From the NCBI GenBank assembly GCA_030583845.1, contig CP129478.1, positions 1,930 to 65,929 of the forward strand: a stretch of 64,000 bases of DNA, in the 5' to 3' direction. Of the stretch, positions 26,624-62,457 are shown in pieces; position 1 is the first letter of the stretch; every line of letters starts with the position of its first letter. The notes beneath the pieces were generated by a model, which worked only from the letters and a program-made list of their open reading frames with translations, was not told the DNA's origin and ran no database searches. The DNA is from Candidatus Dojkabacteria bacterium. Its GTDB lineage: Bacteria; Patescibacteriota; Dojkabacteria; SC72; JAHDCA01. A program made the translations under genes and the position numbers.

Positions 26624-27940
26624 ATGGACAACTACCGCCAGCTGCTCGCCCAATTCGTGCAACTTAGAAGTATCTCGACCGATCCTCAGTACCATAAGGA
26701 GATCGTTAAAACCACAGAGTGGCTCAAGAAGCTGTTTCAAGAGAATAATTTCGAGGTAGAGATAATAGAAGGGTACGAGAATCCAGTGGTTTTTGCCCAG
26801 TATATTACCGACAAGGGATATGAGAGCGTGCTGGTCTATGGCCACTACGATGTGCAACCAGCTACTGTTGAGGATGGGTGGGATAGTGACCCGTTTGAAT
26901 TGACCGAGCGTGATGGGAAGCTATTTGCAAGAGGCGTAGTAGATAATAAGGGGCAAATCTTAGCCCATATCTCATCGGTGATTGATCTAATTGAGAGTGG
27001 CGAGCTCAAATACAACGTGAAATTCCTGATCGAGGGTAATGAAGAAACTGGTGGAAGCGGTGTAGGGCAGTTATTGAAAGATCAGCAAGAGAAATTGTCT
27101 GCTGACCATATCGTCATCTCTGATGGGGAGCTACCATACAAGCCAGTGATTACAGCCTCATTCCGTGGTACCTTCAATCTTACGGTGAAGTATAAGACGG
27201 CTGCAATGAACTTGCACTCGGGATTATATGGGGGAAATGTGCCAAACGCAGCTCAGGAGCTAGCTAAATTGATCGCCTCGCTTTATGACGAACAGTACAA
27301 GTCGACTATTCAGCATCTCTATGATGGTCAAGATGAGATGAGCGACTCCGACCTAGGCAACTGCAAGGTTATGGATAAAGAGAAAGAGGCAAGCATTAAG
27401 CACGCCGGCGTGAAGAAAATATTTGGCGGTGAGCATGACAGCTTTAGCGCGAATCTCGGATTTACTACGATGTATACAGTCAGCGGATTTAAGTCTGGCT
27501 ATACGGGAGAAGGCTACTCGAACATTGTGCCTAGTCAGGCTGAAGCAAGAATAAACTTCAGGGTCGCTGCATCTCAAAACCCTCAGGATGTATATTATAG
27601 GTTTGAAAAGTTTGTTAAGGAAAACACTCCAGAATATGTTGATTGGGAGATAGTAAATCTAACAGAATTTACCAAGCCTGTACGAGTCGATCTTACTTCA
27701 CCAAAGCATGTTGAGGTAAATGAGTTGCTTTCTGAAGTGTATGGCGAAGAGGTGCTAGTTGATTATTGCGGAGCTACAATCCCTGTAGTTGTTGATTTCA
27801 AAGAAGAGCTAGGAGTTGACCCGCTGCTTATCTCGCTTGGCAATGATGATTGCAACATGCATGGTCCAAATGAAAATTTTGATCTAGGCTTGGTCGAGAA
27901 GGCATTACATTTCTCGAAGCGCTTTTTCTCGAAAAACTAG
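26624..27940 (+). CDS. M20-family metallopeptidase/dipeptidase
   Basis: YGHYDVQPA, DNKGQ and EGNEETGG motifs (M20 metal-binding residues). Confidence 0.85.
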   Translation: MDNYRQLLAQFVQLRSISTDPQYHKEIVKTTEWLKKLFQENNFEVEIIEGYENPVVFAQYITDKGYESVLVYGHYDVQPATVEDGWDSDPFELTERDGKLFARGVVDNKGQILAHISSVIDLIESGELKYNVKFLIEGNEETGGSGVGQLLKDQQEKLSADHIVISDGELPYKPVITASFRGTFNLTVKYKTAAMNLHSGLYGGNVPNAAQELAKLIASLYDEQYKSTIQHLYDGQDEMSDSDLGNCKVMDKEKEASIKHAGVKKIFGGEHDSFSANLGFTTMYTVSGFKSGYTGEGYSNIVPSQAEARINFRVAASQNPQDVYYRFEKFVKENTPEYVDWEIVNLTEFTKPVRVDLTSPKHVEVNELLSEVYGEEVLVDYCGATIPVVVDFKEELGVDPLLISLGNDDCNMHGPNENFDLGLVEKALHFSKRFFSKN

Positions 27941-44099: not shown

Positions 44100-44172
44100 C
44101 ATCTGGTCGTGTAGCCAAGCTGGTAAGGCAAGAGTCTGCAAAACTCTGATGCGCGGGTTCGAATCCCGCCAC
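44100..44172 (+). tRNA. tRNA-Cys (anticodon GCA)
   Basis: Manual cloverleaf fold: acceptor GGTCGTG/CACGACC, anticodon loop CTGCAAA, T-arm GCGGG-TTCGAAT-CCCGC, discriminator U; CCA not encoded. Confidence 0.9.
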
Positions 44173-44196
44173 GACCTTATTTAATAAAGAGAAACT

Positions 44197-44280
44197 GCTA
44201 AGCCGGGGTGGTGGAATAGGCAGACACGCGGGACTTAAAATCCCGTGCTAGCAATAGCGTGCGGGTTCGATTCCCGCCCT
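44197..44280 (+). tRNA. tRNA-Leu (anticodon TAA), type II with long variable arm
   Basis: Acceptor GCCGGGG/CCTCGGC (one G-U), anticodon loop CTTAAAA, T-arm GCGGG-TTCGATT-CCCGC, discriminator A. Confidence 0.9.
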
Positions 44281-44304
44281 CGGCACATTTCCTAAGTATT
44301 GAGA

Positions 44305-47954: not shown

Positions 47955-50408
47955 ATGAATTACGGTCCTAGCGGCTATTCAGACGATCCGTTTGGGAGGT
48001 CTGAAAGGATAGACATAACTAAATACTTTTCTGAAAGAGCAACAACCGCAATCCAAAATGCTGCGGCAATTGCCGTGCAAAATAACCTTCGCTCAATTGA
48101 TAGTGAGCAGCTACTTCTTGGAGTAATTCAAGATGATCCTGTCGTATCCAGGGTATTAAAAGAGCTTGGCGTCGACTTGCAATTACTGAAAGAGCAGCTT
48201 GAAGAGTATATAAATAAAGGTGAAGAGGAGATAAGTACTCCAAACCTCTCTCCACGTGCTAAACAGGCACTCCAATTAGCATTTCAAGAAGCGATGGAGC
48301 TTGGCCACAACTACATAGGTGGCGAGCACATCCTATTGGGATTGATCGCCGAGGGGGAAGGGCTAGCGGCACAGCTTCTCAATAATTTTGGTGTCACTCA
48401 TGTTAAGGCCAGGCAAGCAGTCTTAAAGATTGTGGGTGAGGGGGACAAGGAAGGTAGCCATGCTGCAGAGAAATCTGAGACACCAAATTTGGATAAATTT
48501 TCTCGAGACCTCACCGAATTAGCTAAAACAGGAAAAATTGATCCTGTAATTGGCCGTGGCGATGAGATTACACGAGTCGTGCAGATATTGTCACGTAGAC
48601 GCAAGAACAATCCTGTACTGATAGGTGAGCCAGGAGTAGGAAAAACTGCAATCGCAGAAGGACTTGCTTATAGAATCAGCAAAGGCAATGTTCCTGAAGG
48701 GCTGAAAGATAAAGTTGTGAAAGAGCTCGATGTTGCAAGCTTGGTCGCAGGTGCAAAATTTAGAGGCGAGTTTGAGGAGAGAGCCAAGAAGATTATTGAC
48801 GAGCTTGAGAAATCCGGGCGAGGCATCATCCTGTTTATCGACGAGCTACACACTATCGTCGGGACAGGTGCGCAGGAAGGGCAGATGGATCTTTCAAATA
48901 TGCTAAAGCCCGCGCTGTCGCGTGGTGAACTTCAGGTAATCGGTGCTACAACTTTAAATGAGTACAAAAAATATATTGAAAAAGATGCAGCACTTGAGCG
49001 CAGGTTTCAACCTGTACTAGTTGGTGAGCCAACAGTTGAGCAAACAATCGAAATTCTCCGCGGGCTGAGTGACCGATATGAGGCACACCATAAAGTAAAA
49101 ATCGATCAAGAAGCAATAGATGCAGCTGCCTACCTATCTGACCGCTACATCAAAGATCGGTTCTTGCCCGATAAAGCCATTGACTTGATCGATGAGGCAG
49201 CAAGCCGAGTAAAGCTTCTTACCTCAACAGAGCCAGATCATTTACGCCAGCTACGGGATGAGATAGACCAGATGGAGAAAGAGCGGGAGTCGTTGAGCCG
49301 TGCTGGGCAGCATGAAGAGAGCGCAAAGGTGAAGATGGAGGTCGAGAAAAAGAAGAAGGTGCTGGCACCGGCTGAAGAGCAGTGGCTCAAAATTCGTGGG
49401 ACTGGCAATCCAATACTGCTAGCAAAGGATATTGCTGAGCTAGTAGCCAACATGACCGGAATTCCGGTAACAGATCTGCAAAAAGAAGAGAAGGAGCGAC
49501 TACTTAAATTAGAAGAGACATTGCATCAAAGCGTAGTTGGACAAGAGCAAGCAGTGCAGGCAGTCTCTGAAGCTGTGCGTAGGGCCAGAGTAGGACTTAA
49601 AGATCCAAACAAGCCTATCGCTTCATTTATTTTCCTCGGACCAACCGGTGTGGGCAAGACATTGCTAGCCAAGAGCCTTGCAAAGCAGATATTCGGTGAC
49701 GAGGAGGCAATGATCAGACTTGATATGAGCGAGTATATGGAGAAGCATACTGTATCCAGAATGATCGGCTCGCCACCAGGCTATGTCGGATATGAAGAGG
49801 GAGGGCAGCTAACAGAAGCTGTCCGTAGGAAGCCATACTCAGTAATCCTACTCGATGAGATTGAGAAAGCCCATCCAGATATATTCAATACATTGTTGCA
49901 GGTGCTCGATGAGGGAAGACTGACCGATTCAAAAGGTCGTACCGTAGATTTTAAAAATACTATCATTATTGCAACCAGCAATATCGGTGCGGAGAAAATC
50001 ATTAAGTACATGCAGCTGCAATCTGAAGACAAAAAGTGGGAGGTATTGCAGGAGCAGCTCATGCAAGAGCTTCAAGCAAGGTTTAGGCCGGAGTTCCTAA
50101 ACAGACTTGACGATATAATTATCTTTAAGAGCCTCGACAAAGCTCAACTTGTAAATATCGTAAAGATGCTCCTTGAAGAGACCAAGCAGCTCCTTCACGG
50201 CCAGGGGTTGGAGGTGGATTTTAGCGATGCGGTAATTGAGCATCTCGCCGAGGTTGGATATGAGCCAGAATTTGGTGCACGACCGATGAAAAGAGTAATT
50301 CAACGCGAAATTGAGAACACTTTGGCAAATAGGATTCTCAATTCGGATGTGACAGATGATGGGAAGGTCACAGTTGACTTTAAAGATGGGAAGATCGTCT
50401 TTGAGTAA
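47955..50408 (+). CDS. clpC: Clp/Hsp100 AAA+ chaperone (ClpC-like) with two Clp_N repeats and two AAA+ modules
   Basis: GEPGVGKTA and GPTGVGKT Walker A motifs; Clp_N repeats; ClpB/C sensor motifs. Confidence 0.9.
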
Positions 50409-50409
50409 G

Positions 50410-51258
50410 CTACTTTGATGACCGTGCGACTGCGACTGTGAAAGCAGCTCTCGGATAGCGAATTTCATCACTTTTAGTCAGTCGATATGAGTATAGCTTG
50501 TCGTTTTGTGCCGATTCATAGGTGCAGATAGCAGTATCGTAGAAACTGCTGATCCCATACTTATCCCTCATCCTGTCCTTCACCCTTCTGACAAAATCAA
50601 ATCCTTTCTTCTCTTTATCTTCTACCTCCACACAATACTCTTCGATCCAATCTACGCTAGATGACATCTTCTCTATAAAATCTAACCCGTATTCATAATG
50701 CTGGGGACAGATATAAGGAAATATGTATACTTCCGCACGTGACATATTCTCAAGCGAAGCCCGGACAGAAAACAGATCCAGAACATCTTCATATATTCCA
50801 ACAAAAGCCTCCTTGGAGCCGACATGGATATACGCAAAGTGATCTGTGTCAGGATGAGCAATTACGATTATTGCGCAATCGGAAGGAGAAGTCATCACGC
50901 CTTGTCCGGTGAGCGATGTGAGAACGGCGTTAACGTTCAGCTCGTATAAGCCTATATCATCCTGCTGAGATTGACTGTTTCTTATAACTGCCTGAGACTC
51001 TTTGCCGAAGTGAATAAAGCCTGCTTCGAGAGGGCACTTCATTACAACAAATTCATCGGTGCCGACGAGGTTTGCTACCTTTGTACGCTTCTGTGCTATT
51101 AGTGGTTTTTCTTCCTCGTTCTTTGCAAGCTTCTCTGACATGTTTCCCCACTTACCATTATCATAGGTAGCAAGGTTGTTAATGCCGAACTGCTCTTTAA
51201 GTCTAGGAAAAAACAGAATACCGTTTTCAGAATCGAGCTCGTAATTTTGCTGCATCAA
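50410..51258 (-). CDS. YfiH/PgeF-like (DUF152, purine-nucleoside-phosphorylase/laccase-domain) protein, putative peptidoglycan editing factor; apparent TTG start
   Basis: SPSDCAIIVIA and AYIHVGSKEAFVGI resemble the T-x-DC..[IV] and A-x-H-x-GW-[RK] signature blocks of the family. Confidence 0.5.
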   Translation of the reverse strand: MMQQNYELDSENGILFFPRLKEQFGINNLATYDNGKWGNMSEKLAKNEEEKPLIAQKRTKVANLVGTDEFVVMKCPLEAGFIHFGKESQAVIRNSQSQQDDIGLYELNVNAVLTSLTGQGVMTSPSDCAIIVIAHPDTDHFAYIHVGSKEAFVGIYEDVLDLFSVRASLENMSRAEVYIFPYICPQHYEYGLDFIEKMSSSVDWIEEYCVEVEDKEKKGFDFVRRVKDRMRDKYGISSFYDTAICTYESAQNDKLYSYRLTKSDEIRYPRAAFTVAVARSSK

Positions 51259-51261
51259 GGA

Positions 51262-51447
51262 TTACTTCTCTTCTTCGATTATCTCGACTTCAACTTTCTT
51301 AGTGCCGTTCTCATCCTGGCCAACAGATACAACTTCTAGCTCTGTACCACAGACAGAACACTCCAATATTTCACCTACTGAATACTCCTTATCCTCTAAT
51401 ACGATTTCGTTGCCACACTCTGGGCACACAATTTTTGTGTTATCCAT
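51262..51447 (-). CDS. LysW/ArgW-like zinc-ribbon amino-group carrier protein homolog with acidic C-tail (ends EVEIIEEEK)
   Basis: 61 aa; CPECGNEIVLED...GEILECSVCGTELEVV closely parallels the LysW core CPECGAEL.LE..ELGE...C..CGAELEVV. Confidence 0.55.
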   Translation of the reverse strand: MDNTKIVCPECGNEIVLEDKEYSVGEILECSVCGTELEVVSVGQDENGTKKVEVEIIEEEK

Positions 51448-51495: not shown

Positions 51496-52452
51496 ATGAA
51501 GGTGACAATGTCCATTTGGAAATATGCTGAACAGTACAACCCGATAGTAGATATCGCTGCCAGGATTGAAAATAATGCCGGCAATACAGAGCTAACCCAG
51601 ATTGAAATAGATGGTCATGCTGTCTGGCTTAAGCGAGAAGACCAGAACCCAACAGGCTCACACAAAGACCGCTCACTTGCATTTCAGCTTTCAGCACACA
51701 TTGCCGATGGTAGGCAGGATTTCGTTATATCCTCTTCTGGGAATTCTGTAATCAGCGCTGCAAATATTGTAAAGCAATTGCCGAATATCAAGCTGAATAT
51801 TTTCCTTTCCCCAAAGCTTTCAGAGAGCAAGAAAGCAAGATTAGAAAAATACCTCGGATCTGAGATTGACATATCTAGCAAAGAGCCTCAGCTGATTGGG
51901 AACATAACTCTGCACTTCAGTAGGCGAGCGCTTTCCGACTCATTCCGCTTCGCCAAGGAGCATGAATATGTCCTACTACGCGGATCACAAGATCCATATG
52001 CAGTCGAAGGGTTCAAGAGTCTTGGATATGAGCTACTAGAACAGCTGCCAGATATCACAGATATCTTTATGGCCACATCGAGCGGGACCACACTCGTCGG
52101 AGTGGCAAAGTCTATGACAAATGTAAGAGTACACGCTTGCCAATCTAGCTCGATAAATCTTATTGCTAGCCATTTTGATAGAAATTTTGTGCCATCTGAG
52201 AGCTCAATTGCAGACAGCATAGTTGATAGGGTTGGTCATAGGAAAGATGAGGCAATCAGGGTAATTAATGAATCAGAGGGTAGCGGCTGGGTTATCTCTG
52301 ATGAAGAGATAAATAACTCGCTCGAGATGTTAAAGATAAACGGAGTAAACAGCTCGGCGGAGGGAGCACTCGCACTCGCAGCCTACCGTAAAGCCATAAA
52401 TTCCGGATGGGAAATTAGCAAGCCTGTATGTATAATTTCGGGTATAGCCTAA
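51496..52452 (+). CDS. PLP-dependent enzyme of the tryptophan-synthase-beta fold (threonine-synthase/cysteine-synthase-like)
   Basis: LKREDQNPTGSHKDR Lys-containing PLP motif (compare LNPTGSFKDR); Gly-rich loop SSGNS. Confidence 0.8.
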   Translation: MKVTMSIWKYAEQYNPIVDIAARIENNAGNTELTQIEIDGHAVWLKREDQNPTGSHKDRSLAFQLSAHIADGRQDFVISSSGNSVISAANIVKQLPNIKLNIFLSPKLSESKKARLEKYLGSEIDISSKEPQLIGNITLHFSRRALSDSFRFAKEHEYVLLRGSQDPYAVEGFKSLGYELLEQLPDITDIFMATSSGTTLVGVAKSMTNVRVHACQSSSINLIASHFDRNFVPSESSIADSIVDRVGHRKDEAIRVINESEGSGWVISDEEINNSLEMLKINGVNSSAEGALALAAYRKAINSGWEISKPVCIISGIA

Positions 52453-52458
52453 CTGTCT

Positions 52459-54678
52459 ATGAGCAATACCACTCCTACAATTTTCTATATCTGCAATGAC
52501 CCAGAGCGAGCATTAGGTCCTGAAGCCTTTATTGATAACTACCACATTGTATGTATCGACAATAGCCCCTTGCTACCCTTGCTTAAAGCCAAGGGGATCA
52601 AGTATTTCTCGTTGGGCGAGACTCTCGGTGACAGCAACACAATTTTCCGCAATTCCAATAAACTGCTCGCTCGCAAAGAGGTGCAAGAGTATATTGCTGC
52701 AAATTGTGGAGACCAGGCTTATGTCCAGTTTTTTAAAATCGCCCCAAATATTGAGCGAGAATCGGCTAAATTGGGGTATACAGTATTAAACAGCTCTTCT
52801 GTTCTCAACCGTAAGTTCGAAAATAAGCTCTCACAGTATGAATCACTTTCTGGGTCGGTCAAGAATTTTCCTCCGACTGTCATAACCAAACTGTTGGATG
52901 CAAGCTACCAAGATCTCAGTGATGAGCTTGGTGAAGAGATGGTCGTTCAGTTTGACCGAGGACATACTGGCTCTGGGACTCTCTTCATTAAAAGCGAGTC
53001 GCAATTTAATGAAGTTAAAGATGAATTCCCAAACAGGGTCGCACGCATTGCGAAAATGATTGAAGGCGAGGCATGGACTCTGAATGCATGCGTTACAAGA
53101 TTCGGCATAGCATATGGTGGTCTTTGTAAGCAGATAACTGGAATACCAGAGCTAACTTCAGAAGCTGGCGGAACAGTTGGCAATGATTGGACTCAGGTAT
53201 CAGGTCTGAGCCAAGAAATGCTGCAGCAGATTGGCGAGCTGACCGAGCGGGTAGGAGAGCTTATGGCAGCGGATGGATATAAAGGACTATTTGGACTTGA
53301 CCTAATTATTACACCAAACAACGAGCTATATCTTATTGAAATCAATGCGAGGCAGCCTGCCTCAACAGGCATGCACAGCAAACTAATGCTTCAGTCCGAG
53401 CAGATCCCGCTTATTGCTTTCCATATAGCTGAGTTTGCTTTCAAAGGAGATGAGCAATATTTAGCCTTTATTAATCAGACATTTAATAAGCAGTTTAATG
53501 AAGATAAAATTTCACACTTCATTAAATCCCAAAACCACACTTCTTTAAGTTCATTAAATGCCTCTCAGATTATCATTCGCAACAAGTCAGGAAAGGATCT
53601 TAAAATTAAAGATGCAATTCCAGCAGGAGAATATAACAGCAGCTTGGAAAAAGCAGGCGAGAACTATTCAATCTCTGAGATAGATCGAGCAAACTTTATT
53701 CTACTTCACACTGCTCAAGGGCAAGAAGTATCACCTGGCAGCGAGATTGCCCGTATCCAAGCTCCAGAAAGCGTGCTAGACGGTGACAACCTCAAGCTGC
53801 AATATGCTAAGATGGTTGAGCTGATAAATCAGAACAACGACAATATGAGCAGCGAGCATAGATCAGAGCAACAAACAGCTCCCAGCATTACTTCGCAGGC
53901 CGAAAATATCGTAACGAAAGAGCTCCCAACCGAAGTTCAGCAATATATTCGTAAATACTTCGAGCTGCCTATAAACGGCGTACTCGTAACTACTCCATAC
54001 TTTAGAAATGTTAAAAGAGTTCGTGCGGAGCTTCGCGTCCTTGTAGGGAAGGGAACTCCGGAAGAGCTTGTTGAGGAGACGCTTATATACGCTAAACTTC
54101 GAGGATTCGAGCTTCGAGGCAAGACAGCGGAAGAGATTAGAGAGTTTATGATGGAGCAGGGACTGGGTGTAGACTGCTCAGCATTTGTGGCACACACATA
54201 TAATTACTACATGCGAGTAACAGAAAGCGGCTCGCTTTGGGCGAAGGCAAAGTACCCAAACAAAGGCTTCTATCGAAACTTCATCCGCATGCTCCGACCC
54301 GTCGAGAATCTCGGAGCCGAAATCTTAACCAATCTGGAGAATTGCGACAAGATTGAACTCGCTCAAATTGAGCCTGGTGATCTTATCCGCATGAAAGGGC
54401 TAAAGGGCGGCGATCATCTCGCACTGGTATATGCTGTTCAGTATGACCAAAGCGACAGGCCAACAAAGTTTACTTATGTCCACTCGATTTCAAGGTATGG
54501 CAAAGCAAATGGCGTAAGATTTGGAGATGTCATAATCAACGATGCAAACGGTGAATTAAAAGACCAGGAATGGCTGGAAAAAGATGAGGATGGGATATGC
54601 TGGACATTGAAAGAGCTGAAAACAGAATATGAAGATAACGGACTCAGACGACCTAAATTCAAGCCCAATGCCCGATAA
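52459..54678 (+). CDS. Bifunctional-looking fusion: N-terminal ATP-grasp ligase domain plus C-terminal NlpC/P60 (papain-like) amidase domain
   Basis: ATP-grasp: EEMVVQFDRGHTGSGTLFI and GYKGLFGLDLIITPNNELYLIEINARQ. NlpC/P60: GVDCSAFVAHTY (Cys) and GDLIRMKGLKGGDHLALVY (His), then YVHSI. Confidence 0.7.
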   Translation: MSNTTPTIFYICNDPERALGPEAFIDNYHIVCIDNSPLLPLLKAKGIKYFSLGETLGDSNTIFRNSNKLLARKEVQEYIAANCGDQAYVQFFKIAPNIERESAKLGYTVLNSSSVLNRKFENKLSQYESLSGSVKNFPPTVITKLLDASYQDLSDELGEEMVVQFDRGHTGSGTLFIKSESQFNEVKDEFPNRVARIAKMIEGEAWTLNACVTRFGIAYGGLCKQITGIPELTSEAGGTVGNDWTQVSGLSQEMLQQIGELTERVGELMAADGYKGLFGLDLIITPNNELYLIEINARQPASTGMHSKLMLQSEQIPLIAFHIAEFAFKGDEQYLAFINQTFNKQFNEDKISHFIKSQNHTSLSSLNASQIIIRNKSGKDLKIKDAIPAGEYNSSLEKAGENYSISEIDRANFILLHTAQGQEVSPGSEIARIQAPESVLDGDNLKLQYAKMVELINQNNDNMSSEHRSEQQTAPSITSQAENIVTKELPTEVQQYIRKYFELPINGVLVTTPYFRNVKRVRAELRVLVGKGTPEELVEETLIYAKLRGFELRGKTAEEIREFMMEQGLGVDCSAFVAHTYNYYMRVTESGSLWAKAKYPNKGFYRNFIRMLRPVENLGAEILTNLENCDKIELAQIEPGDLIRMKGLKGGDHLALVYAVQYDQSDRPTKFTYVHSISRYGKANGVRFGDVIINDANGELKDQEWLEKDEDGICWTLKELKTEYEDNGLRRPKFKPNAR

Positions 54679-55796
54679 TGGAGTGGCCAGCATTCACAAA
54701 TGATGTAAGGACAACAATCTACTACATATTGGTCTCTTTCGTAGTATCGATGCTGTTAGCTCCGATATTGATCAAAGTGCTGTACAAGTATAACGTAGTC
54801 AGGAAGACAGATAAGGACTTTGCTTCGATCGTCGGTGACAGATTCCTCAAGGCTGGTACACCGATCATGGGTGGTACTCTTGTAGTTTTCACGACCACAA
54901 TATTGACGATTCTATTCAACTGGAACGGGAATACATATATCCCTATCGCTGTACTCCTTATATCAGCTCTATTGGGAGGTATGGACGATCTGCTAAATAT
55001 CTTCGGCAGGAAGAGAGTAGTGAGAACAATTAAGAAACAGGTGCTATTGGCCAGAGTACATAAGAGTCCACTCCACCGACTCTATCTGTGGCTAACTCTC
55101 CCTTGGATTGCATACAAAAATATCTGGTATGCTCTTGGCTCCTACCCAGGCTCGGGTATCCATGCAGGAGAGAAAATAATTGTGCAGCTCATGGCAGGGG
55201 CATTTGTGGCTTGGTGGATCTACTCCAAGCTAGGATGGGATACCGTATGGTTCCCATGGATTGGCACGGTAGAGCTGGGCTACCTGATGCCTATTTTTAT
55301 CATTTTCACAGTTGTCTCAATGACAAATGCTGTAAATATCTCAGACGGCATGGATGGGCTATCGTCGGGTTTGCTGATATTCTCATTCATTGCATATTTA
55401 ATAATCTCACTCATCCAGGGGAATTTTGAGATCGCTACACTTATAGCAGTTGCAGTTGGCTCGTTGATCGCATATCTCTACTTCAATATTAAGCCTGCCA
55501 GATTTGAGATGGGGGATGTAGGGACATTAGCCTTGGGGGCTATGCTGGCTACAGTTGCATTCGCACTGGACAGACCTATTCTGCTGCCAGTTATTGGCTT
55601 TATGTTTGTTGCTGAGATAGGCTCATCGCTGATTCAGGGTGTGTATAGGAGAATCTTCGGCAAGAGGCTGTGGAAAATGGCGCCTTTGCATCTACACTAC
55701 CAGATCAAGGGCTGGTCAGAAGAAAAAGTTGTCATGAGGTTTTGGCTGATGGCAGGATTGTTCGCTCTGGTCGGAGTTTGGCTTAGCTTGATGTAG
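54678..55796 (+). CDS. mraY: Phospho-N-acetylmuramoyl-pentapeptide transferase MraY
   Basis: NAVNISDGMDGL and APLHLHYQ (APLHHHF-type) motifs. Confidence 0.9.
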   Translation: MEWPAFTNDVRTTIYYILVSFVVSMLLAPILIKVLYKYNVVRKTDKDFASIVGDRFLKAGTPIMGGTLVVFTTTILTILFNWNGNTYIPIAVLLISALLGGMDDLLNIFGRKRVVRTIKKQVLLARVHKSPLHRLYLWLTLPWIAYKNIWYALGSYPGSGIHAGEKIIVQLMAGAFVAWWIYSKLGWDTVWFPWIGTVELGYLMPIFIIFTVVSMTNAVNISDGMDGLSSGLLIFSFIAYLIISLIQGNFEIATLIAVAVGSLIAYLYFNIKPARFEMGDVGTLALGAMLATVAFALDRPILLPVIGFMFVAEIGSSLIQGVYRRIFGKRLWKMAPLHLHYQIKGWSEEKVVMRFWLMAGLFALVGVWLSLM

Positions 55797-55797
55797 A

Positions 55798-56823
55798 CTA
55801 GTAGCCGCGTCGCTTATTTTCCAGATTTTCATAAACCCTAGTGGCATGTGCGAAAGGGTAAACGATCATATCGTGGGCATGCACAGTCTGAACTTCACTC
55901 CCCCCAAACCCACGCTTAAACAGCGATAATCCATACCATGGATGCTCTTTCTGATTTTCGGGAGATACACCCCACAAGTTATGGATCCTCATGCCAGCAG
56001 ACTTGGCATACTTAATCGCTTCCCACTGTAGCAGGTATGTTGAAGGTACCTCACGAAACTGTGTGAGCGAGCCACTATGGTGGTATACAGAGTGGCCATT
56101 GAAATATATGAATATGGCAGCCGCGATCGGCTTATTCTCGTACAGTGTGAAAAACATACGAGCCATATTATCTTTCGCAAATAGCTCAAACTCTTTCTGG
56201 ATATAGTTGCGTGAGTAAGCAGTCCATTTATTTCTACTCACTGCATCCTGATAGATTTCCCAAAACTGTTCAAAATTCTCCATCCCTGTTGTGCTTACAA
56301 CTTTGATCCCCATTTTCTCAGCCTTCCTTATATAGTAGCGAGTATTTTTGCGCATCTCAGCGAGTAGCTGATCTTCACTTTTGGAAAGGTCGAGCACCAA
56401 TGTATTCTCGGCATCGACAGCATGTGCCGTGGCTGGGATAAGTTTGCACTCTTTCAATAGATCATTGTGTAATGGGGTATTAGAAAGCAGCGGGCTTATG
56501 CGGACAAACTGCCAAGCCCCTTTCACAGCCATCTTCTTTAGAAATTTCAATACGGCTGCAACAAGCTCTCTGTTCTCCCAATCTATCAATGGGGCATGCC
56601 TCAGGTGAAGATAGCGACCACGCAAGGCCTTTACATGTTTTATCGGGAGTAGACCGACTATTGAATCGTTACTGTCATATACAGCATAGTTATCGAAAAC
56701 AGCCCCAAGTGATTTTTCAAATTCACCATAGTTCCACGACAGGACAAATGTTGCATTATCAAATCTTGATGCAACTTCATCCCACTTCTCCTTATCATTT
56801 AGCTTCTTAATGCTATACATCAT
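55798..56823 (-). CDS. FemABX-family aminoacyl-tRNA-dependent peptidoglycan peptidyltransferase
   Basis: VYHHSGS, YLLQWEAIKYAK, LFKRGFGG family motifs. Confidence 0.8.
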   Translation of the reverse strand: MMYSIKKLNDKEKWDEVASRFDNATFVLSWNYGEFEKSLGAVFDNYAVYDSNDSIVGLLPIKHVKALRGRYLHLRHAPLIDWENRELVAAVLKFLKKMAVKGAWQFVRISPLLSNTPLHNDLLKECKLIPATAHAVDAENTLVLDLSKSEDQLLAEMRKNTRYYIRKAEKMGIKVVSTTGMENFEQFWEIYQDAVSRNKWTAYSRNYIQKEFELFAKDNMARMFFTLYENKPIAAAIFIYFNGHSVYHHSGSLTQFREVPSTYLLQWEAIKYAKSAGMRIHNLWGVSPENQKEHPWYGLSLFKRGFGGSEVQTVHAHDMIVYPFAHATRVYENLENKRRGY

Positions 56824-56865
56824 ACAATCGTTAGGTCACTAAACCTTATACATATCTCGTAAACA

Positions 56866-58125
56866 CTATTTAGCTTCAACGCCGTAATACTCCTCGATCT
56901 TATCAACTATATAATTCGCATCTTCAACTGAAGTATTAATATGTGTCGGTAAATTTATTATCCGGTCACACACTGCCTCGCCACTCGGGCATTCACCACT
57001 CTTGTAGCCTACTGCCTTCGGATTTGCTTCCTTTGGAGAGATTGGATCTGAATACCAGTCGCCAAGATAGATATGGTGGTCGCTCAAAAATGCCAACAGA
57101 TGCTCTTTCCTATATGCAAGAGCCGGGAACCTCAAAGGCGCAGCATTTTCATCTATGCTGAAGCTTTCGACATACTTATTACCTTTTAGCCGTGATTTGT
57201 AAACTTTAGCTATGCTGTCACGATGATAATTGAGTGCTTCAAGGTCAAGTAGCTGTAGGTATGCAAGCTTAGCCAACGCGTTGGGTAAAAGCCGCGGCAC
57301 CGAAGAGGGTAGTGTACCCGATTTCTCCTCAGGTGTAGTTGCTCGGGTCACCAGACCTAATGTCATAGATATTTTATGAAATAGCTTGGCAACCTTGGGC
57401 GAATACTTGTAGAAGAACTTAAACTTGCTCCAAAATATAGGGAAATTTAGCTCCTTCCATACCCACCATCTAGTCGGATGCTCAAGGTCCATGTAGAGAG
57501 CATCAACTTCATCTAGGTAATCGTTATTATTTAACACCAGGACTCCGCCATCAACACCGGAAATCGCCTTATCCCGCCCGAAGCTGAAAACAGCAGCATC
57601 ACCATATGTACCGATTAGTTTACCTCGATGCTTTGTCAGTAATGTATGGGTACAGTCTTCAAGCAGAACAATATTGTGCTTCTTAGCAAGCTTCGCAACA
57701 GCTTCTATCTCTCCTTGAACCCCCAATGTATGCTGATACACAATAACTTTTGTTTTTTCTGTAATCTTCTCAGCCAGACTTGCAACTGAGAATGCCAAAG
57801 TCTCAGGAGAAATATCGGCATATACAGGCTTGAAGCCCGCCCACACAGCTGGATTAACGGCTGCTATGCAGGTGAATCCTTGAAAAATTACCTGATCGCC
57901 ACGCTTCGGTTTTAACGCCTTAAAGAATTGATACATGGCGGATCTGGCGTAATTGTACACAAAGTACTCCCGATCATCACCATACTTCTCTGCAAACCAC
58001 TGCTCAACCAAGTAAGGGTATCCACCCTTCTTCCATTTCCATGGTTGGAAATAGATTTTCAGATTGGCGTGCATATCCTTCCTGCGTGTACTTGGGGAAT
58101 AGGATGTGTATATCAGCCTGTTCAT
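56866..58125 (-). CDS. DegT/DnrJ/EryC1/StrS-family PLP-dependent sugar aminotransferase
   Basis: GDQVIFQGFTCIAAVNP and FSFGRDKAISGVDGG (PLP Lys) motifs. Confidence 0.85.
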   Translation of the reverse strand: MNRLIYTSYSPSTRRKDMHANLKIYFQPWKWKKGGYPYLVEQWFAEKYGDDREYFVYNYARSAMYQFFKALKPKRGDQVIFQGFTCIAAVNPAVWAGFKPVYADISPETLAFSVASLAEKITEKTKVIVYQHTLGVQGEIEAVAKLAKKHNIVLLEDCTHTLLTKHRGKLIGTYGDAAVFSFGRDKAISGVDGGVLVLNNNDYLDEVDALYMDLEHPTRWWVWKELNFPIFWSKFKFFYKYSPKVAKLFHKISMTLGLVTRATTPEEKSGTLPSSVPRLLPNALAKLAYLQLLDLEALNYHRDSIAKVYKSRLKGNKYVESFSIDENAAPLRFPALAYRKEHLLAFLSDHHIYLGDWYSDPISPKEANPKAVGYKSGECPSGEAVCDRIINLPTHINTSVEDANYIVDKIEEYYGVEAK

Positions 58126-58889
58126 CTATTTTGACGGATGAAGTTATCGATCTCAATGAAGATGTTCTCTGGCTGGCTTATTGGCAGGCTATGGCCAACC
58201 CCTTGATAGATTTTGATCTTTGATCCTGAAATTTTTTCATTTATCATTACAGCCTCTTCGACTGGTGTGTACCTATCTTGGTCGCCCCACAAGATCAGTG
58301 TGGGCTTATTAATTTTCTCCAGTCGGTCAGTGAGATCCTGGGTAATAATCTTGCGATAGCTCTCCTCAAGCTTAGGATTTTTCAATGTATCGGAAAGTGG
58401 ATAGAAAATCTTGTAGTACAGCTTTCTAAGTGGGCGAGCCTTCTCTTTATACTGTTCATAGTTCGGTACTACTTTCTTGATAGTTGAGCTGGCTTTGCTC
58501 TCTTTTGGTGAGCGCCTAATTGCCGCCGCACAGAGGATAAGATTTTTGATAAGATCGGGCGACTCTGCTGAAATATATGCACCAAGCCCACCGCCAAATG
58601 AGTGTCCGAAATAGATTACCTCATGCAACCCGAGCGCGACAATAAATTTCCTCAAGAAAAGCGCATATTCTTCAACCCCCCATGTAGTAGTAGGCGCATC
58701 GGAGTTGCCAAACCCAGGTAGGTCGAGCAGGTAAGCTTTGTAGCGATACTTTGAAGCAGTTGAAAAAAGCCCCCTAAGACTTTCTACGCTCCCTCCCCAA
58801 CCATGAACAAACAGAATTGGGACTTGGGAACCAACAGCTCCCTCTGACTCTAGGTAATTGATTTTCAGGCCATCTACATCTATCTTCAT
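58122..58889 (-). CDS. Alpha/beta-fold hydrolase
   Basis: HGWGGS oxyanion region, GHSFGG nucleophile elbow; 4-bp overlap with upstream degT-like gene. Confidence 0.75.
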   Translation of the reverse strand: MKIDVDGLKINYLESEGAVGSQVPILFVHGWGGSVESLRGLFSTASKYRYKAYLLDLPGFGNSDAPTTTWGVEEYALFLRKFIVALGLHEVIYFGHSFGGGLGAYISAESPDLIKNLILCAAAIRRSPKESKASSTIKKVVPNYEQYKEKARPLRKLYYKIFYPLSDTLKNPKLEESYRKIITQDLTDRLEKINKPTLILWGDQDRYTPVEEAVMINEKISGSKIKIYQGVGHSLPISQPENIFIEIDNFIRQNR

Positions 58890-59038: not shown

Positions 59039-60310
59039 ATGAGCAAGTTACTCCCACAAAACCTGAAGAACAAAAAGCACCTCCTGACCTCGAAGTTTTA
59101 CCATAACTTCTATGGCAAGCCTTCAAAGCAGCTTAAAATAATCGGCGTCACTGGCACCGATGGTAAGACGACTACGAGCACTATTTTATATGAAATGTTG
59201 AAGCTGGCTGGCTACAAAGTTGGCCTTATCTCAACGATCAGCGCCAAGATAGGCAGCAAGGAGTATTCGACAGGATTTCATGTTACCTCGCCTAGTCCGA
59301 AAGATTTGCAAAAATTTCTGAAGGAGATGGTGAAAGAGGGATTGGAGTATGTGGTGTTGGAGACCACCTCACACGGATTGGATCAGTATAGAGTAGGGGG
59401 AGTACAGTATTGTGCTGCTGTTTTTACAAATGTAAGCCACGAGCATCTGGACTACCACAAAACATACGACAACTACCTCCAGACCAAGGCCCGGCTTATG
59501 GAGCTACTAGATAAAGATGGTTTTGCGGTGATAAATAAAGATGACCAGTCGTATGAGAAATTTGTCTCCAAGGCCAAAGCTCTCGGAATTGACATGATCG
59601 ATTACGGCTTTAGCGATGGAAGCGATATGAAGGGCGATAACCTACAACAGAATGGCAGGATGTCATTTAGAGCGACACTTCACTCGACAGATCAGAATAT
59701 TGAGCTAAATTTCGACACCAATCTTCAAGGGAAATATAACGCGCAGAATATCATGGCTGCAGCTGTTGCAGCATATGAGCTGGGAGCCGAGGTAGAAGCA
59801 ATCGAAAAAGCCGTGCACAATGTAAAAAGCCTTAAAGGCCGATGGGAAGTGTTGCAAGAGCACCCTTTCAAAGCGGTAGTTGATTTCGCACATACTCCAA
59901 ATGCACTGGAGAATGTGCTTTCATTTGCTCGCGCTGACAACAGAGAAGGGAAGCTAATCGTGGTATTCGGAAGCGCTGGACTACGCGATGTAACCAAAAG
60001 GCCATTGATGGGTGAGGCTGCCGGGAAGCATGCAGACTACACCATCCTAACCGCCGAGGATCCACGTGGAGAAAGTGTTACCTCTATTTCAAATATGATC
60101 GCAGAGGGTATTAAAAAGCATTCCGGGAAGTATGAAATAATCGAGGACAGGAAAGAGGCAATAGCCGCTGCCATAAAGATGGCAAAGAAAGGAGATACGG
60201 TGGTAGTCACAGGCAAAGGGCACGAAGAGAGCCTCAATCTAGATGGCAAAAGCGAAATTCCGTGGAGTGACCAGAAGGTGATGGGGGAGCTATTAAATTC
60301 TAAAAAGTAA
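59039..60310 (+). CDS. murE: Mur ligase family protein (MurE-like) lacking the canonical N-terminal domain
   Basis: IGVTGTDGKTTTS P-loop only 38 aa from the start; in-frame TAG 6 nt upstream of the ATG; C-terminal Mur-ligase domain present. Confidence 0.75.
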   Translation: MSKLLPQNLKNKKHLLTSKFYHNFYGKPSKQLKIIGVTGTDGKTTTSTILYEMLKLAGYKVGLISTISAKIGSKEYSTGFHVTSPSPKDLQKFLKEMVKEGLEYVVLETTSHGLDQYRVGGVQYCAAVFTNVSHEHLDYHKTYDNYLQTKARLMELLDKDGFAVINKDDQSYEKFVSKAKALGIDMIDYGFSDGSDMKGDNLQQNGRMSFRATLHSTDQNIELNFDTNLQGKYNAQNIMAAAVAAYELGAEVEAIEKAVHNVKSLKGRWEVLQEHPFKAVVDFAHTPNALENVLSFARADNREGKLIVVFGSAGLRDVTKRPLMGEAAGKHADYTILTAEDPRGESVTSISNMIAEGIKKHSGKYEIIEDRKEAIAAAIKMAKKGDTVVVTGKGHEESLNLDGKSEIPWSDQKVMGELLNSKK

Positions 60311-60313
60311 CGT

Positions 60314-61003
60314 ATGAGACTTCATTTCAAAGAGACTAAAAACGCTGATTATCAAAACTACGAGTTCCCGTATAAAGTGTATGCGACTCGAGAAGATAGC
60401 GATAGCGTGGAATCTATGTACGAGCAAGGCTTCCTTCAGACAAGGATTGAGAAAGAGTACTATTACTTAGCGCGTGGTGTAAGAATCAAGCTTGAAGATT
60501 TCGAGTTAAATAGTGAGAATCGCCGCATCTTGAGGAAGACCGAATATATGGAGATGGCAATCGCCAGCCTAAGAGATTTTGAATACGACCACACGATTGG
60601 GAAGTTCGCTAAAGATTATTACGATAGTCGTTTTGGTCCAAAGACTTTATCGCCTCAGAAGATGAAGTGGATTTTCACATCGGGTGCTTTTACCGATGTG
60701 CTTATCTTCCGTGACAAGAGCAATGGAGAGATCATCGGATATTGCCCGGTACTGATGACCAACGAGATTATGCACTACGCTTACCCGTTCTTCCAGCTAA
60801 GCTACATGGAGAAGAATCTTGGCATCGGCATGATGACAGCCGCTATCCAATATGCCCAGGAGAAAGGGTTGAAATATGTATACCTCGGCACATGCTACAG
60901 TGAGCAGGCATTATATAAGACACAGTTTGATGGCGTTCAGTGGTTTGACGGGGAGACATGGAGTGATGATCTTGAACAGCTAAAGCAGCTTTGCAGAAAT
61001 TAA
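60314..61003 (+). CDS. ATE/Bpt-family (arginyl-/leucyl-tRNA--protein transferase C-domain-like) protein, divergent, without N-terminal Cys motif
   Basis: HYAYPFFQLSYMEKNLGIG and YVYLGTCYSEQALYKTQF...W align with the Bpt blocks FYTFFEPE..LSLGT and WLYLGYQIDECPAMNYKVRF...W. 229 aa, close to Bpt length. Confidence 0.5.
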   Translation: MRLHFKETKNADYQNYEFPYKVYATREDSDSVESMYEQGFLQTRIEKEYYYLARGVRIKLEDFELNSENRRILRKTEYMEMAIASLRDFEYDHTIGKFAKDYYDSRFGPKTLSPQKMKWIFTSGAFTDVLIFRDKSNGEIIGYCPVLMTNEIMHYAYPFFQLSYMEKNLGIGMMTAAIQYAQEKGLKYVYLGTCYSEQALYKTQFDGVQWFDGETWSDDLEQLKQLCRN

Positions 61004-61020
61004 GTTAACGAAATTAGATA

Positions 61021-62457
61021 ATGAAGTCACAGCATATACATTTCATCGGAATCGCAGGATCGGCAATTGCTCCAGTAGCAATCTTGATGAAAAGCCTTGG
61101 GCATAAAGTGACCGGATCAGATGAAGCGGTATATGAGCCAGCCAGAACTCTCTTGAGCGAAGCTGGAGTAGAGTGGAGCGAGGGGTATGATGCAGAGAGA
61201 ATTAAGCCAGCAGACCTAGTGATACTTGGTGGTGCACCACTTATGGTTGATATCAACAACCCTGAGTTTCTTGCGGCCAAGGAGCTCGGCAAACAGCTTG
61301 AAGGATATGCATACCTGCTCAAACAGTATGTTGTAAAAGATGAGTCGATTGTTGTGACTGGGACATATGGCAAGACCACAACCTCGGCACTTGTAAATTG
61401 GATATTAGATGTAGCTGGTGAGAACCCTTCATTTATGATTGGTGGTAAGCCGCAAAATTTCGAAAATGGCGTGAGGATGACAGATTCAAAATACTCTTGC
61501 CTGGAAGGTGATGAGTATCTTGCGGTCTTTCACTTCGACGAGGAGCCACGCTTCCTCAGATATGCACCGAAATATGCGATCTTATCGGCAGCCAAGTGGG
61601 ACCATATAAATGTATATCCAACCGAGGATTCATATGTGGATGCCTTCAAGAAACTGCCTGCTGAGGTGAACAAGAATGGTGGCAAAATGTATGTGTGTGC
61701 CTCAGGCGAGAACAACGCCAAGGCAGTTGCTGAGTATGATGGTGAGCTCATTCTTTATATGCTCGAAGGGAGAGACTCATCGCAGTTCGAGGGACGAGAT
61801 GTGAACTACCTCGCTAAAGAGATCAGGACTGAGGGTGGCAAGACCCTTTTTACTGTTGAACTTAATGGAGGGATTATAGGAGATTTTGAGACAGAGCTGA
61901 TAGGAGATTTCAATGTTGAGAACTGCCTCGCTGCTATCACAATTACCCATGACCTTGGTATCGATATTGCAAAGATCAAAGAGGCAATTTCTACTTTTAA
62001 GGGCATAATGCGAAGGCTTGAGCTGAAGGGCTATACAAGTCGTGGCTCTTCCGTTATTGACGATTTCGCACACTCTGCGGTGAAAGCAAAAGCCACTCTC
62101 GACACGCTTCGAGTAACTTATCCGGACCGCAAGCTTATCTGCATCTACTACCCAAGACCATCAGAGCGCGAGGATAAGAATGTGCTTAGCTGGTACGAGG
62201 GAGCATTTGACTCTGCGGACCTGATGATACTCCCAAGAATCTTCGTCAAGAAATCTACCGAGAAAGAGCAGAGGATCTATGGGAAAGATTATATTGAGGT
62301 AATAAGCAAGACACAGCCTAATGCGCATTATGTGCCAAGGAACGAAGATATCGTGAAGCTGATAAAAGAGAATGAAGAGGACGAAAGTATCATTGTATTC
62401 ATGAGTGCCGGTGGCTGGGGAGACTTAATGGAGAGTTTGATAGACAAGAAGGCGTAA
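61021..62457 (+). CDS. murC: MurC/Mpl-family UDP-N-acetylmuramate--amino acid/peptide ligase
   Basis: HFIGIAGSAIAPVAILMKSLGHKVTGSDEAVYEP...VTGTYGKTTTSALV; layout especially Mpl-like. Confidence 0.85.
   Translation: MKSQHIHFIGIAGSAIAPVAILMKSLGHKVTGSDEAVYEPARTLLSEAGVEWSEGYDAERIKPADLVILGGAPLMVDINNPEFLAAKELGKQLEGYAYLLKQYVVKDESIVVTGTYGKTTTSALVNWILDVAGENPSFMIGGKPQNFENGVRMTDSKYSCLEGDEYLAVFHFDEEPRFLRYAPKYAILSAAKWDHINVYPTEDSYVDAFKKLPAEVNKNGGKMYVCASGENNAKAVAEYDGELILYMLEGRDSSQFEGRDVNYLAKEIRTEGGKTLFTVELNGGIIGDFETELIGDFNVENCLAAITITHDLGIDIAKIKEAISTFKGIMRRLELKGYTSRGSSVIDDFAHSAVKAKATLDTLRVTYPDRKLICIYYPRPSEREDKNVLSWYEGAFDSADLMILPRIFVKKSTEKEQRIYGKDYIEVISKTQPNAHYVPRNEDIVKLIKENEEDESIIVFMSAGGWGDLMESLIDKKA

Follow-up and report, generated by a model that had tools for sequence, protein, structure and literature searches.

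In the CysO-CysM-Mec+ system of Mycobacterium tuberculosis, an aminoacrylate made by a pyridoxal phosphate (PLP) enzyme is attacked by the C-terminus of a carrier protein, and a dedicated hydrolase frees the resulting amino acid. In the pathways that use LysW or a related amino-group carrier protein (AmCP; LysW-LysX-LysZ-LysY-LysJ-LysK, ArgW, and Vzb22), the γ-carboxylate of the terminal Glu of the canonical carrier holds the cargo (PMC12998189, PMC9303977). In the pearlin pathways, an amino acid is placed in peptide linkage on the phosphorylated C-terminal carboxylate of a carrier, modified, and cut off by a dedicated protease (PMC9303977). The present analysis concerns a 64-kb window (64,000 nucleotides, positions 1,930 to 65,929 of contig CP129478.1 from a Candidatus Dojkabacteria bacterium; all coordinates below are those of this window), in which an open reading frame (ORF) at 52459..54678 (+) encodes an ATP-grasp ligase fused to an NlpC/P60-type peptidase. 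As judged from sequence and gene order, the fusion joins two genes of a four-gene module of LysW-type carrier, PLP enzyme, ATP-grasp ligase, and C40 peptidase that is widespread in the Patescibacteria (candidate phyla radiation, CPR). The module points to an undescribed route for the assembly of a cell-wall amino acid on a carrier protein. That the ligase and the peptidase load and unload this carrier is, in our estimate, an evenly balanced proposition.

The fusion ORF starts with ATG and encodes a protein of 739 amino acids (aa). The ATP-grasp ligase part (aa 1-460, 52459..53838) comprises pre-ATP-grasp, ATP-grasp, and C-terminal subdomains. It is followed by a low-complexity, disordered inter-domain linker (aa 461-485, 53839..53913) and by the NlpC/P60-type (C40, papain-like) Cys peptidase part (aa 486-739 plus the stop codon, 53914..54678), which was assigned using standalone homologues, an AlphaFold2 (AF2) model, and Foldseek; all three lie on the + strand. 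We regard the domain identities as practically certain. An identical protein is present in NCBI from a Candidatus Dojkabacteria metagenome-assembled genome (MAG), annotated as "ATP-grasp domain-containing protein," and the 739-aa protein was found again in a separate Logan assembly. An assembly or frameshift artefact as the origin of the fusion is ruled out by these NCBI and independent Logan copies, and further by five other fused homologues with 30-64% identity on other contigs.

In the AF2 model of residues 1-479, the linker has predicted local distance difference test (pLDDT) values below 50 at residues 463-479. It is the point where standalone ATP-grasp homologues stop and standalone peptidase homologues begin, and it appears to correspond to the former stop/intergenic/start stretch of a two-gene arrangement. 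The initial annotation of this ORF had made the ATP-grasp domain the N-terminal one, which agrees with the Pfam ATP-grasp_3 match above cutoff at residues 121-299, and the motifs that it quoted from the C-terminal half, GVDCSAFV (Cys573), GGDHLALVY (His653), and YVHSI (His675), were all located in the protein. It had also described a middle region of roughly 250 aa without a recognizable family. While no Pfam match was found there, the region is not an unknown domain, but is composed of the ATP-grasp C-domain (~300-460), the 25-aa linker (461-485), and the N-terminal subdomain of the peptidase (486-~565).

For comparison across genomes, 80 loci were taken from one-genome-per-species contigs via the peptidase profile, and their ORFs were scored with the window proteins. 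The representative set was made up of the 52 loci that had 12 kb of sequence or more. The ATP-grasp gene lies directly upstream of a separate peptidase gene in 43 of these 52 loci, and the two are fused in none of them. The same arrangement, an ATP-grasp gene adjoining a separate gene for a 258-276-aa protein, was seen in one Nomurabacteria and another Dojkabacteria genome. In the unfused loci, the peptidase start mostly lies between -13 and +31 nucleotides (nt) from the ATP-grasp stop. The fused proteins form two groups, one comprising the window protein, P0002, P0003, and P0004 (44-64% identity), and the other P0115 and P0118 (~31% identity), in which the ATP-grasp C-domain is shortened; Cys573, His653, and His675 are kept in all six. 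The fusion is genuine, rare, and recurrent, having arisen in at least two lineages. Since the rare but recurrent fusion of a conserved adjoining pair is classical evidence that two activities work together, the proposal of a ligase coupled to its cognate hydrolase, already made in the initial annotation, gains strength from a pair that is near-invariably adjacent, often overlapping, and fused in at least two lineages.

The linkage of this gene pair to further genes was scored in the 43 loci. A PLP-enzyme gene was found in 42 of them, a LysW-type carrier gene in 41 (a count that includes divergent versions), and an adjacent MraY gene in 24. The module remains intact without an adjacent MraY (L003/L004), and it is kept with the carrier and PLP genes inverted (L010, L011, and L016), with the same two genes 4 kb downstream (the L049-L078 group), and with the peptidase on the other side (L079-L082 and L088). 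In L003 (7504..8004) and L004 (1375..1887), which belong to another Dojkabacteria lineage, a 166-170-aa ORF lies between the PLP-enzyme and ATP-grasp genes; it has weak methyltransferase-like matches (E ~1e-4) and could represent an additional tailoring step. Many of the MAGs in L046-L082 are labeled "uncultured Gammaproteobacteria" or "Candidatus Saccharibacteria" (binchicken co-assemblies), whereas Magasanikbacteria and Dojkabacteria are the named groups closest to them, and these taxonomic labels look unreliable.

The carrier gene of the window (51262..51447, -) encodes a 61-aa Zn-ribbon protein with an isoelectric point (pI) of 4.05 and the C-terminus …EIIEEEK. It is matched by Pfam Zn_ribbon_LysW (PF21344) with 44.9 bits against a cutoff of 27, confirming a LysW-like ORF noticed earlier beside the fusion gene, and it is transcribed divergently from the PLP-enzyme gene. 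A terminal Lys is present in 48 of 48 carriers from the loci, 42 of which end in EEEK (21), DEGK (13), EDEK (3), xEEK (3), EEYK, or EVEK, with six divergent carriers having the tails SEEEK, SEMMK, SDMMK, SDMIK, and SDREK. When 1.84 billion representative proteins were scanned exhaustively with HMMER, 31 of 39 small matches ended in K, and the canonical carriers lower in the list ended in …DWGE; a word-indexed database search with the 61-aa carrier returned only three proteins. The positions -1 to -3 are variable (E/G/M/I/Y/T/Q), and Lys alone is invariant. Since the residues preceding the terminal Lys vary, a Glu side chain is not the universal reaction site, and the variable -1 residue argues for chemistry at the α-carboxyl/peptide bond or on the Lys itself. 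The Lys-ended LysW-type proteins of the module form a distinct subfamily. The carrier is strongly acidic (net -12.5), and the C40 part is the sole basic component of the module (pI 8.07); published AmCP enzymes recognize their carrier electrostatically (PMC9303977).

The PLP-enzyme gene (51496..52452, +) ends 6 nt ahead of the start codon of the fusion gene and encodes a 318-aa fold-type II enzyme of the ThrC/CysM/SbnA-like type (Pfam PALP, E 2e-36). The PLP-binding Lys57 lies in SHKDR, accompanied by an SSGN loop, and is kept in 50 of 50 complete orthologues. The best match in the Protein Data Bank (PDB) was ThrC (6cgq, E 3.6e-10, full-length), followed by CysM and SbnA at ~1e-6; the matches include the M. 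tuberculosis CysM, which was deposited as an O-phosphoserine sulfhydrylase. Threonine dehydratase and serine racemase stand lower among the relatives. Going by these matches, the solved relatives of the PLP enzyme are phospho-ester β/γ-replacement enzymes. CysM uses the C-terminus of a carrier protein, CysO, as a nucleophile. The module thus shares with CysO-CysM-Mec+ a fold-type II PLP enzyme paired with a carrier, with CysM itself among the solved relatives. However, CysO is ubiquitin-like, carries a thiocarboxylate, and is activated by adenylation with no ATP-grasp enzyme involved, and the releasing hydrolase is a JAMM metalloprotease.

From these components we infer the following chemical steps, cargo, and product fate. 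The amino acid would be held in amide linkage on the carrier C-terminus during its modification, as in the LysW/AmCP and pearlin pathways. The ATP-grasp half would act as the loader, phosphorylating the terminal carboxylate of the carrier and coupling it to the α-amino group of a free amino acid, and the C40 half as the unloader, in which Cys573, His653, and His675 would cut off the modified C-terminal residue in a carboxypeptidase-like manner. The preferred cargo is L-lysine, and the gene-encoded terminal Lys would leave each new carrier "pre-loaded." With its α-amino group blocked, the free ε-amino group of this Lys would be the only available nucleophile, and it would attack an aminoacrylate (or vinylglycine-type) intermediate made by the PLP enzyme from a phospho- or acetyl-ester amino acid. 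While a fold-type II PLP enzyme cannot form an aldimine with a peptide-bound residue, it could present an aminoacrylate-type electrophile to such a residue. The C40 half would then release a lysine-derived diamino-dicarboxylic acid, which could be used by a Mur ligase such as the linked MurE-like enzyme and is plausible as a cross-linking residue, after which the ATP-grasp half would recharge the shortened carrier with fresh Lys. Fusing the loader to the unloader would keep both activities on a single carrier-binding scaffold.

The chemistry of the peptidase is compatible with the unloading step. NlpC/P60 enzymes classically cut Glu-|-Lys/mDAP bonds (mDAP, meso-diaminopimelate), and E. coli MepS is additionally annotated as an L,D-carboxypeptidase. 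There is also precedent for C-terminal loading, modification, and proteolytic release, and in the pearlin pathways a genetically encoded C-terminal cargo was functional (PMC9303977). The version in which lysine is the cargo and the product is a cell-wall amino acid is nevertheless put forward tentatively and must be considered doubtful as it stands. The same holds for the corresponding broader proposal, namely that the Lys-ended LysW-like proteins represent a new CPR carrier pathway, in which the ε-amine of Lys is alkylated (lysinoalanine-type), the product is released as an mDAP surrogate, and Lys is recharged; the window fusion would then be one chain that both unloads and reloads the carrier. 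We consider this possible, but not probable.

The terminal Lys could also be read in the manner of a classical amino-group carrier with a different anchor, so that the Lys, or a nearby Glu, is an attachment or recognition site only. The ATP-grasp enzyme would then attach another amino acid by its α-amino group, the PLP enzyme would elaborate the side chain, and the C40 enzyme would release the product. This would be the closest copy of the published LysW/AmCP logic (PMC9303977, PMC12998189), and the carrier and PLP linkage speaks for it exactly as it does for a lysine cargo. However, on chemical grounds, lactam formation is to be expected when the α-carboxylate is activated on a residue whose ε-amine is free, a Glu side-chain anchor is unlikely given that Glu is not conserved at -1, -2, or -3 (DEGK, EMMK, DMIK, EEYK), and the simpler explanation of an invariant residue is that it is the one that reacts. 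We therefore consider a different anchor decidedly unlikely, and Lys is favored as the cargo because it alone is invariant and because activation of a carboxylate beside a free ε-amine is chemically awkward.

Compared with the LysW/AmCP systems, the module likewise contains a small acidic LysW-fold Zn-ribbon protein beside ATP-grasp and hydrolase genes, and the logic proposed here is the same: an amide tether on the carrier C-terminus, modification, and hydrolytic release (PMC9303977, PMC12998189). In contrast, the module carrier ends in Lys instead of the Glu of the canonical …DWGE, the ATP-grasp enzyme is not of the LysX/RimK type, and the hydrolase is a Cys peptidase of the NlpC/P60 type, whereas LysK is an M20 metallopeptidase. 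The sole modifying enzyme of the module is the fold-type II PLP enzyme, its setting is peptidoglycan synthesis, and no LysZ, LysY, LysJ, or LysK was found among the conserved neighbors of the module loci. The NCBI name of the window carrier, "lysine biosynthesis protein LysW," is probably misleading, since LysX, LysZ, LysY, LysJ, and LysK are not encoded in the module.

The pearlin pathways (3-thiaglutamate, 3-thiahomoleucine, and ammosamide) follow a similar logic, in which the carrier is loaded, the residue is modified in place and removed, and the carrier is regenerated. There, the loader is LanB-like and tRNA-dependent, whereas the proposed loader of the module is an ATP-grasp enzyme using a free amino acid; no PEARL (LanB-like) domain was found in the window neighborhood or the related loci. 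The module carrier is a folded Zn-ribbon protein, its protease is of the C40 type, and it belongs to the primary cell-wall metabolism of CPR bacteria, not to a natural-product cluster. By its composition, the module is a member of neither the AmCP nor the pearlin pathways, and the resemblance is one of biosynthetic logic only.

A purely regulatory use of the carrier tail was also considered, in which the C-terminal residue is added and removed without any small-molecule product, switching the binding of the carrier to a cell-wall enzyme. The models for such a cycle are tubulin tyrosine ligase with vasohibin, and RimK acting on S6. The tubulin tyrosination pattern is that of an acidic ...EE-X tail acted on by an ATP-grasp enzyme and a papain-like peptidase, and the fusion of ligase and peptidase would suit it. 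Vasohibin is likewise a papain-like enzyme (PMC10318531). However, such a cycle would assign no function to the PLP enzyme found in 42 of 43 loci, and the module has no conserved sensor or regulator, so that a tail cycle of this kind seems most improbable.

Turning to the proposed loader, the ATP-grasp half is matched by Pfam PF02655 (ATP-grasp_3) at residues 121-299 with E 1.5e-8 (35.3 bits against a cutoff of 23.2), and by the NCBIfam models PRK06524 (E 1.6e-38) and LdmS (E 2.6e-6), each below its own cutoff. Most homologues found with the whole protein are standalone ATP-grasp proteins of ~470 aa that match query residues 1 to ~450. The AF2 model of residues 1-479 (pLDDT 91.5) is folded to residue 462 and disordered beyond it. 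It superposes over its full length on the three-domain ATP-grasp enzymes biotin carboxylase, PurK, and PurD (E ~1e-16; template modeling (TM) score 0.57-0.66), and Foldseek returned 739 PDB matches at E <= 1e-3. K123, the HTGSGT loop (169-174; H169, T170, G171, G173, and T174), and E294-x-N296-x-R298 are invariant in 32 homologues and the six fusions, and K123, the Gly-rich loop, and E-x-N presumably serve the nucleotide and Mg2+ roles usual in the ATP-grasp family. No RimK or LysX profile matched the ATP-grasp half in Pfam or NCBIfam at E <= 0.01.

A profile search against PDB sequences with the ATP-grasp half identified LdmS (7R8P, E 3e-5) and BesA (8YI6, E 1e-3), and its closest characterized sequence relatives are L-amino-acid ligases. 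LdmS and BesA each join an acidic amino acid, through its carboxylate, to the α-amine of a second amino acid (PMC9486568). Moreover, ldmS shares an operon with hmrA, the product of which was suggested by the authors to degrade the dipeptide (PMC9486568). Unlike the module enzymes, both ligases use free amino acids with no carrier and no fused peptidase, and the similarity is limited to the ATP-grasp core. Amine carboxylation in the manner of biotin carboxylase or PurK was rejected as the reaction of this half: the likeness in fold is generic to three-domain ATP-grasp enzymes, PRK06524 scored 132 against a cutoff of 684, and the closest characterized sequence relatives are peptide-bond-forming ligases. 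A replacement of Ddl is retained only as part of the explanation by precursor-directed action given below, since phmmer searches of every window ORF with the E. coli DdlB and MurC-F sequences gave no Ddl-like similarity for the ATP-grasp enzyme.

The C-terminal half was assigned with the help of its standalone homologues. Query residues 470-739 match ~255-aa proteins in many Patescibacteria with E down to 7e-94. Pfam NLPC_P60 (PF00877) stayed below its cutoff of 23 with both the whole protein (17.5 bits) and the domain alone (20.0 bits), but it matched 27 of 30 family members at E <= 0.1 (best E 2e-6), and the related Amidase_6 matched 12 of 30. PDB-sequence searches with the whole protein and with the C40 family profile gave nothing significant for this half, and the assignment was therefore settled by hhalign against MepS and by Foldseek. 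The hhalign comparison of the family profile with E. coli MepS/Spr gave a probability of 93.8% and E 1.7e-7. It pairs GIDCSGFV with the GIDCSGFV of MepS and GHHVALI with its GRHVGIY, the Cys and His of which we take to be the catalytic residues of MepS, and the alignment ends before the third polar residue. The AF2 model of the peptidase (pLDDT 91.2) had Spr/MepS, Npun_R0659, and CwlO as its top Foldseek matches in the PDB, followed by IdeS and CHAP proteins, with weak scores (E ~1e-3, TM ~0.43 to the target). Within the papain-like enzymes, this half belongs to the NlpC/P60 branch, of which it is a very divergent representative. The initial annotation had named a Cys/His domain of this type, to be abandoned if these residues fell outside the NlpC/P60 catalytic positions; both align with those of MepS, and the Foldseek matches agree.

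Invariant among 30 aligned members are the D-C-S motif, the His in the G-x-H-H/L strand, and the Tyr two before the H/Q/E/N position. Cys573 (54175..54177, +), the predicted nucleophile in GVDCSAF, is aligned to the MepS Cys and conserved in 30 of 30 standalone and six of six fused proteins. His653 (54415..54417, +), the predicted general base in GGDHLALVY, is aligned to the MepS His and likewise invariant in both. His675 (54481..54483, +) in YVHSI is the predicted third polar residue of the triad, following the NlpC/P60 positional pattern; this position is H in most of the 30 members, Q, E, or N in a few, and H in all six fusions. A large insertion separates the Cys from the His, and the ~80-aa N-terminal accessory subdomain (486-~565) contains the invariant basic motif PY..N.KR.RA.LR.LVGKG, which is conserved in the standalone family. 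Since no signal- or transmembrane-like segment was found in any family member, and since the domain is fused to an ATP-using enzyme, the peptidase is cytoplasmic. It shares with MepS/Spr and the YkfC-type C40 enzymes the papain-like core, the Cys in a DCSGF helix, the His in a β-strand, and a predicted third polar residue. However, the relationship is very distant, and the module domain differs in its size of ~250 aa with the N-terminal subdomain and the Cys-His insertion, its cytoplasmic location without signal peptide, SH3, or LysM, and its pairing or fusion with an ATP-grasp enzyme.

The fusion had been compared initially with glutathionylspermidine synthetase/amidase (Gsp). Gsp and trypanothione synthetase do combine in one polypeptide an ATP-dependent amide-forming ligase and a papain-like Cys amidase that can reverse bonds of the same type, and the reversed domain order described for the present protein is correct. 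Homology is not supported, since CHAP, the family of the Gsp amidase, gave only weak matches (3 of 30 peptidase family members, E >= 0.06) and the ligase is nearest to L-amino-acid ligases of a different lineage. No GSP_synth was found among the Pfam matches of the fusion protein, and the substrate of Gsp is a small thiol-polyamine conjugate with no protein carrier. The comparison therefore holds as an analogy only.

A cytoplasmic C40 enzyme could instead serve the salvage of wall peptides, acting like YkfC as a γ-D-Glu-|-Lys/mDAP peptidase on imported host muropeptides, with the ATP-grasp enzyme re-ligating the pieces and the PLP enzyme racemizing or converting an amino acid. The closest folds of the peptidase include the γ-D-glutamyl-L-diamino-acid endopeptidase family (2evr), and both the cytoplasmic location and the gene for an oligopeptide-binding protein in the window (39650..41344) would fit such a function. 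According to the general view, CPR bacteria rely on building blocks that they scavenge. However, salvage offers no role for the Lys-ended carrier found in 41 of 43 loci, and it is with genes for precursor synthesis, and not with transporter genes, that gene order and operon structure connect the pair. We consider this explanation very unlikely.

Across the loci, the module almost always sits among peptidoglycan-precursor genes. In the window it is flanked by genes for FtsW, MurG, a PgeF-like protein, MraY, FemAB, MurE-like and MurC-like ligases, an ATE_C/GNAT-type transferase, and MurB, so that the MraY, FemAB, and Mur ligase neighbors mentioned initially are indeed present. The MraY gene (54678..55796, +; Pfam and NCBIfam mraY, E 1.9e-49) overlaps the stop codon of the fusion gene by 1 nt at its start (TAATG), and the two probably belong to the same operon. 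Of the other cell-wall genes, the 423-aa MurE-like ligase (59039..60310, +) was matched by phmmer with E. coli MurE at E 5.9e-64, and no Pfam match to an N-terminal Mur_ligase domain was found in this short protein. It has EDPR at the DNPR position, with the Arg kept and the Asn not, and the orthologues in related loci have EDPR, DDTR, or VDPG. DNPR is the mDAP-recognition motif of MurE (PMC3829189). The MurE-like ligase is a possible consumer of the module product. No DdlB, MurD, or MurF homologue was found in the 64-kb window by phmmer with E. coli queries, which detected only the MurE-like and MurC-like ligases.

This setting suggests another explanation, in which the enzymes act on soluble peptidoglycan precursors and the LysW-like protein is an accessory or regulatory subunit instead of a substrate. 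The ATP-grasp enzyme would add an amino acid to a UDP-MurNAc-peptide (compare D-aspartate ligase on Lys3) or, in place of Ddl, make a dipeptide to be used by a Mur ligase, and the C40 enzyme would proofread or trim wrong products, as PgeF does. The overlap of the fusion gene with MraY, the peptidoglycan genes around the module in the window and most loci, the lack of Ddl, MurD, and MurF homologues in the 64-kb window, and the habit of NlpC/P60 enzymes of cutting stem peptides are all in keeping with this, as are distant C40 paralogues that lie beside MraY and Mur ligases without an ATP-grasp enzyme or carrier. However, the pair is more tightly linked to the carrier (41/43) and to the PLP enzyme (42/43) than to an adjacent MraY (24/43), and this linkage survives in loci without an adjacent MraY. 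The invariant terminal Lys of a carrier-type protein would be left unexplained, the ATP-grasp enzyme has no significant similarity to Ddl, and the absence of Ddl from 64 kb of a genome means little. Direct action on precursors is thus unlikely in our view, though it retains a real chance. The initial annotation had named two possible targets of the fusion, of which the LysW-like carrier is better supported by these linkage counts and the cell-wall precursor less so.

Several points weigh against a loader and unloader acting on a Lys-ended carrier. The ATP-grasp enzyme is not of the LysX/RimK type, and its similarity to LdmS and BesA spans only ~55 core residues. The PLP enzyme could merely supply a free amino acid, or could be a racemase or dehydratase. 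The carrier tail extends only ~4 residues past the last β-strand, far shorter than in canonical LysW, and the terminal Lys could be a mere recognition element or a removable cap. Two of the 43 loci have no carrier within +/-6 kb. The motif of the MurE-like ligase was rejected as a specificity marker, because EDPR does not discriminate between substrates. Finally, in nine loci (L050, L055, L057, L059, L062, L071, L072, L077, and L080, with two copies in L062 and L080), distant C40 paralogues with 25-32% identity lie by MraY and Mur ligases without the ATP-grasp enzyme, PLP enzyme, or carrier. These paralogues may be cytoplasmic peptidases that need no carrier and have peptidoglycan precursors as their substrates, and the carrier-less loci indicate that the peptidase lineage can work without a carrier, possibly on UDP-MurNAc-peptides.

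The CPR or Patescibacteria represent a large share of bacterial diversity, and their tiny genomes are thought to lack most amino-acid biosynthesis. They build peptidoglycan, the chemistry of which is almost unstudied. The module offers a testable route to the residue at the cross-linking position of the CPR cell wall and to its source, and the window fusion is a convenient single-polypeptide reagent for this. If the proposed route is correct, it would follow LysW/AmCP and the pearlins as the third design in which an amino acid is made on the C-terminus of a carrier, and it would place the carrier design in essential metabolism instead of a natural-product pathway. An NlpC/P60 enzyme would also be given a biosynthetic function inside the cell, the family being usually regarded as secreted wall hydrolases. 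If the module only edits precursors or salvages peptides, it would be a modest extension of cell-wall housekeeping. The main interest lies in the subfamily of Lys-ended carriers and in how tightly it is coupled to a proposed loader/unloader pair in a CPR cell-wall cluster. No published description of the module was found in the literature on LysW/AmCP, CPR peptidoglycan, and NlpC, though Iyer et al. (2009), which deals with amidoligases, may mention a related association.

Further genes of the cluster were located around the module. The MurE-like gene is followed by genes for a 229-aa ATE_C/GNAT-fold protein resembling aminoacyl-tRNA-protein transferases (60314..61003, +) and for the MurC-like ligase (61021..62457, +), and this pair recurs beside the module in ~20 of the 52 loci, where the carrier and PLP genes often have it directly upstream of them. 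Between MraY and the MurE-like gene, a block on the opposite strand (55798..58889, -) encodes a FemAB-family transferase, a DegT/DnrJ-type aminotransferase, and an α/β-hydrolase, and is transcribed toward the PLP-fusion-MraY genes in a convergent orientation. L001, L008, and L009 contain this block as well, together with an extra Mur ligase, and it hints at a further non-standard modification of the stem peptide or sugar. On the other side, the PgeF/YfiH-like ORF (50410..51258, -) lies 3 nt from the carrier gene and encodes 282 aa from a TTG start; its true start is probably further downstream, since the L001 orthologue was called at 242 aa. A ClpB/ClpC-type double-AAA+ chaperone gene (47955..50408, +) lies between MurG and the PgeF-like gene, likewise in L001, L012, and L036.

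Promoter and terminator scans of the window gave chance-level results, and no riboswitch or other RNA leader was found, with two tRNAs being the only matches at the Rfam gathering score in the 64 kb. These two tRNA genes (44105..44177 and 44202..44285, +) lie just upstream of the cell-wall cluster. An M20/M25/M40 peptidase gene (26624..27940) is 25 kb away from the module and is unlinked to it in other genomes. Together with the genes for a clostripain-like C11 peptidase (32497..34398), a PGA_cap (CapA-like) protein (36376..38049), and the oligopeptide-binding protein mentioned above, which belongs to family 5, it is consistent with a peptide-scavenging lifestyle.

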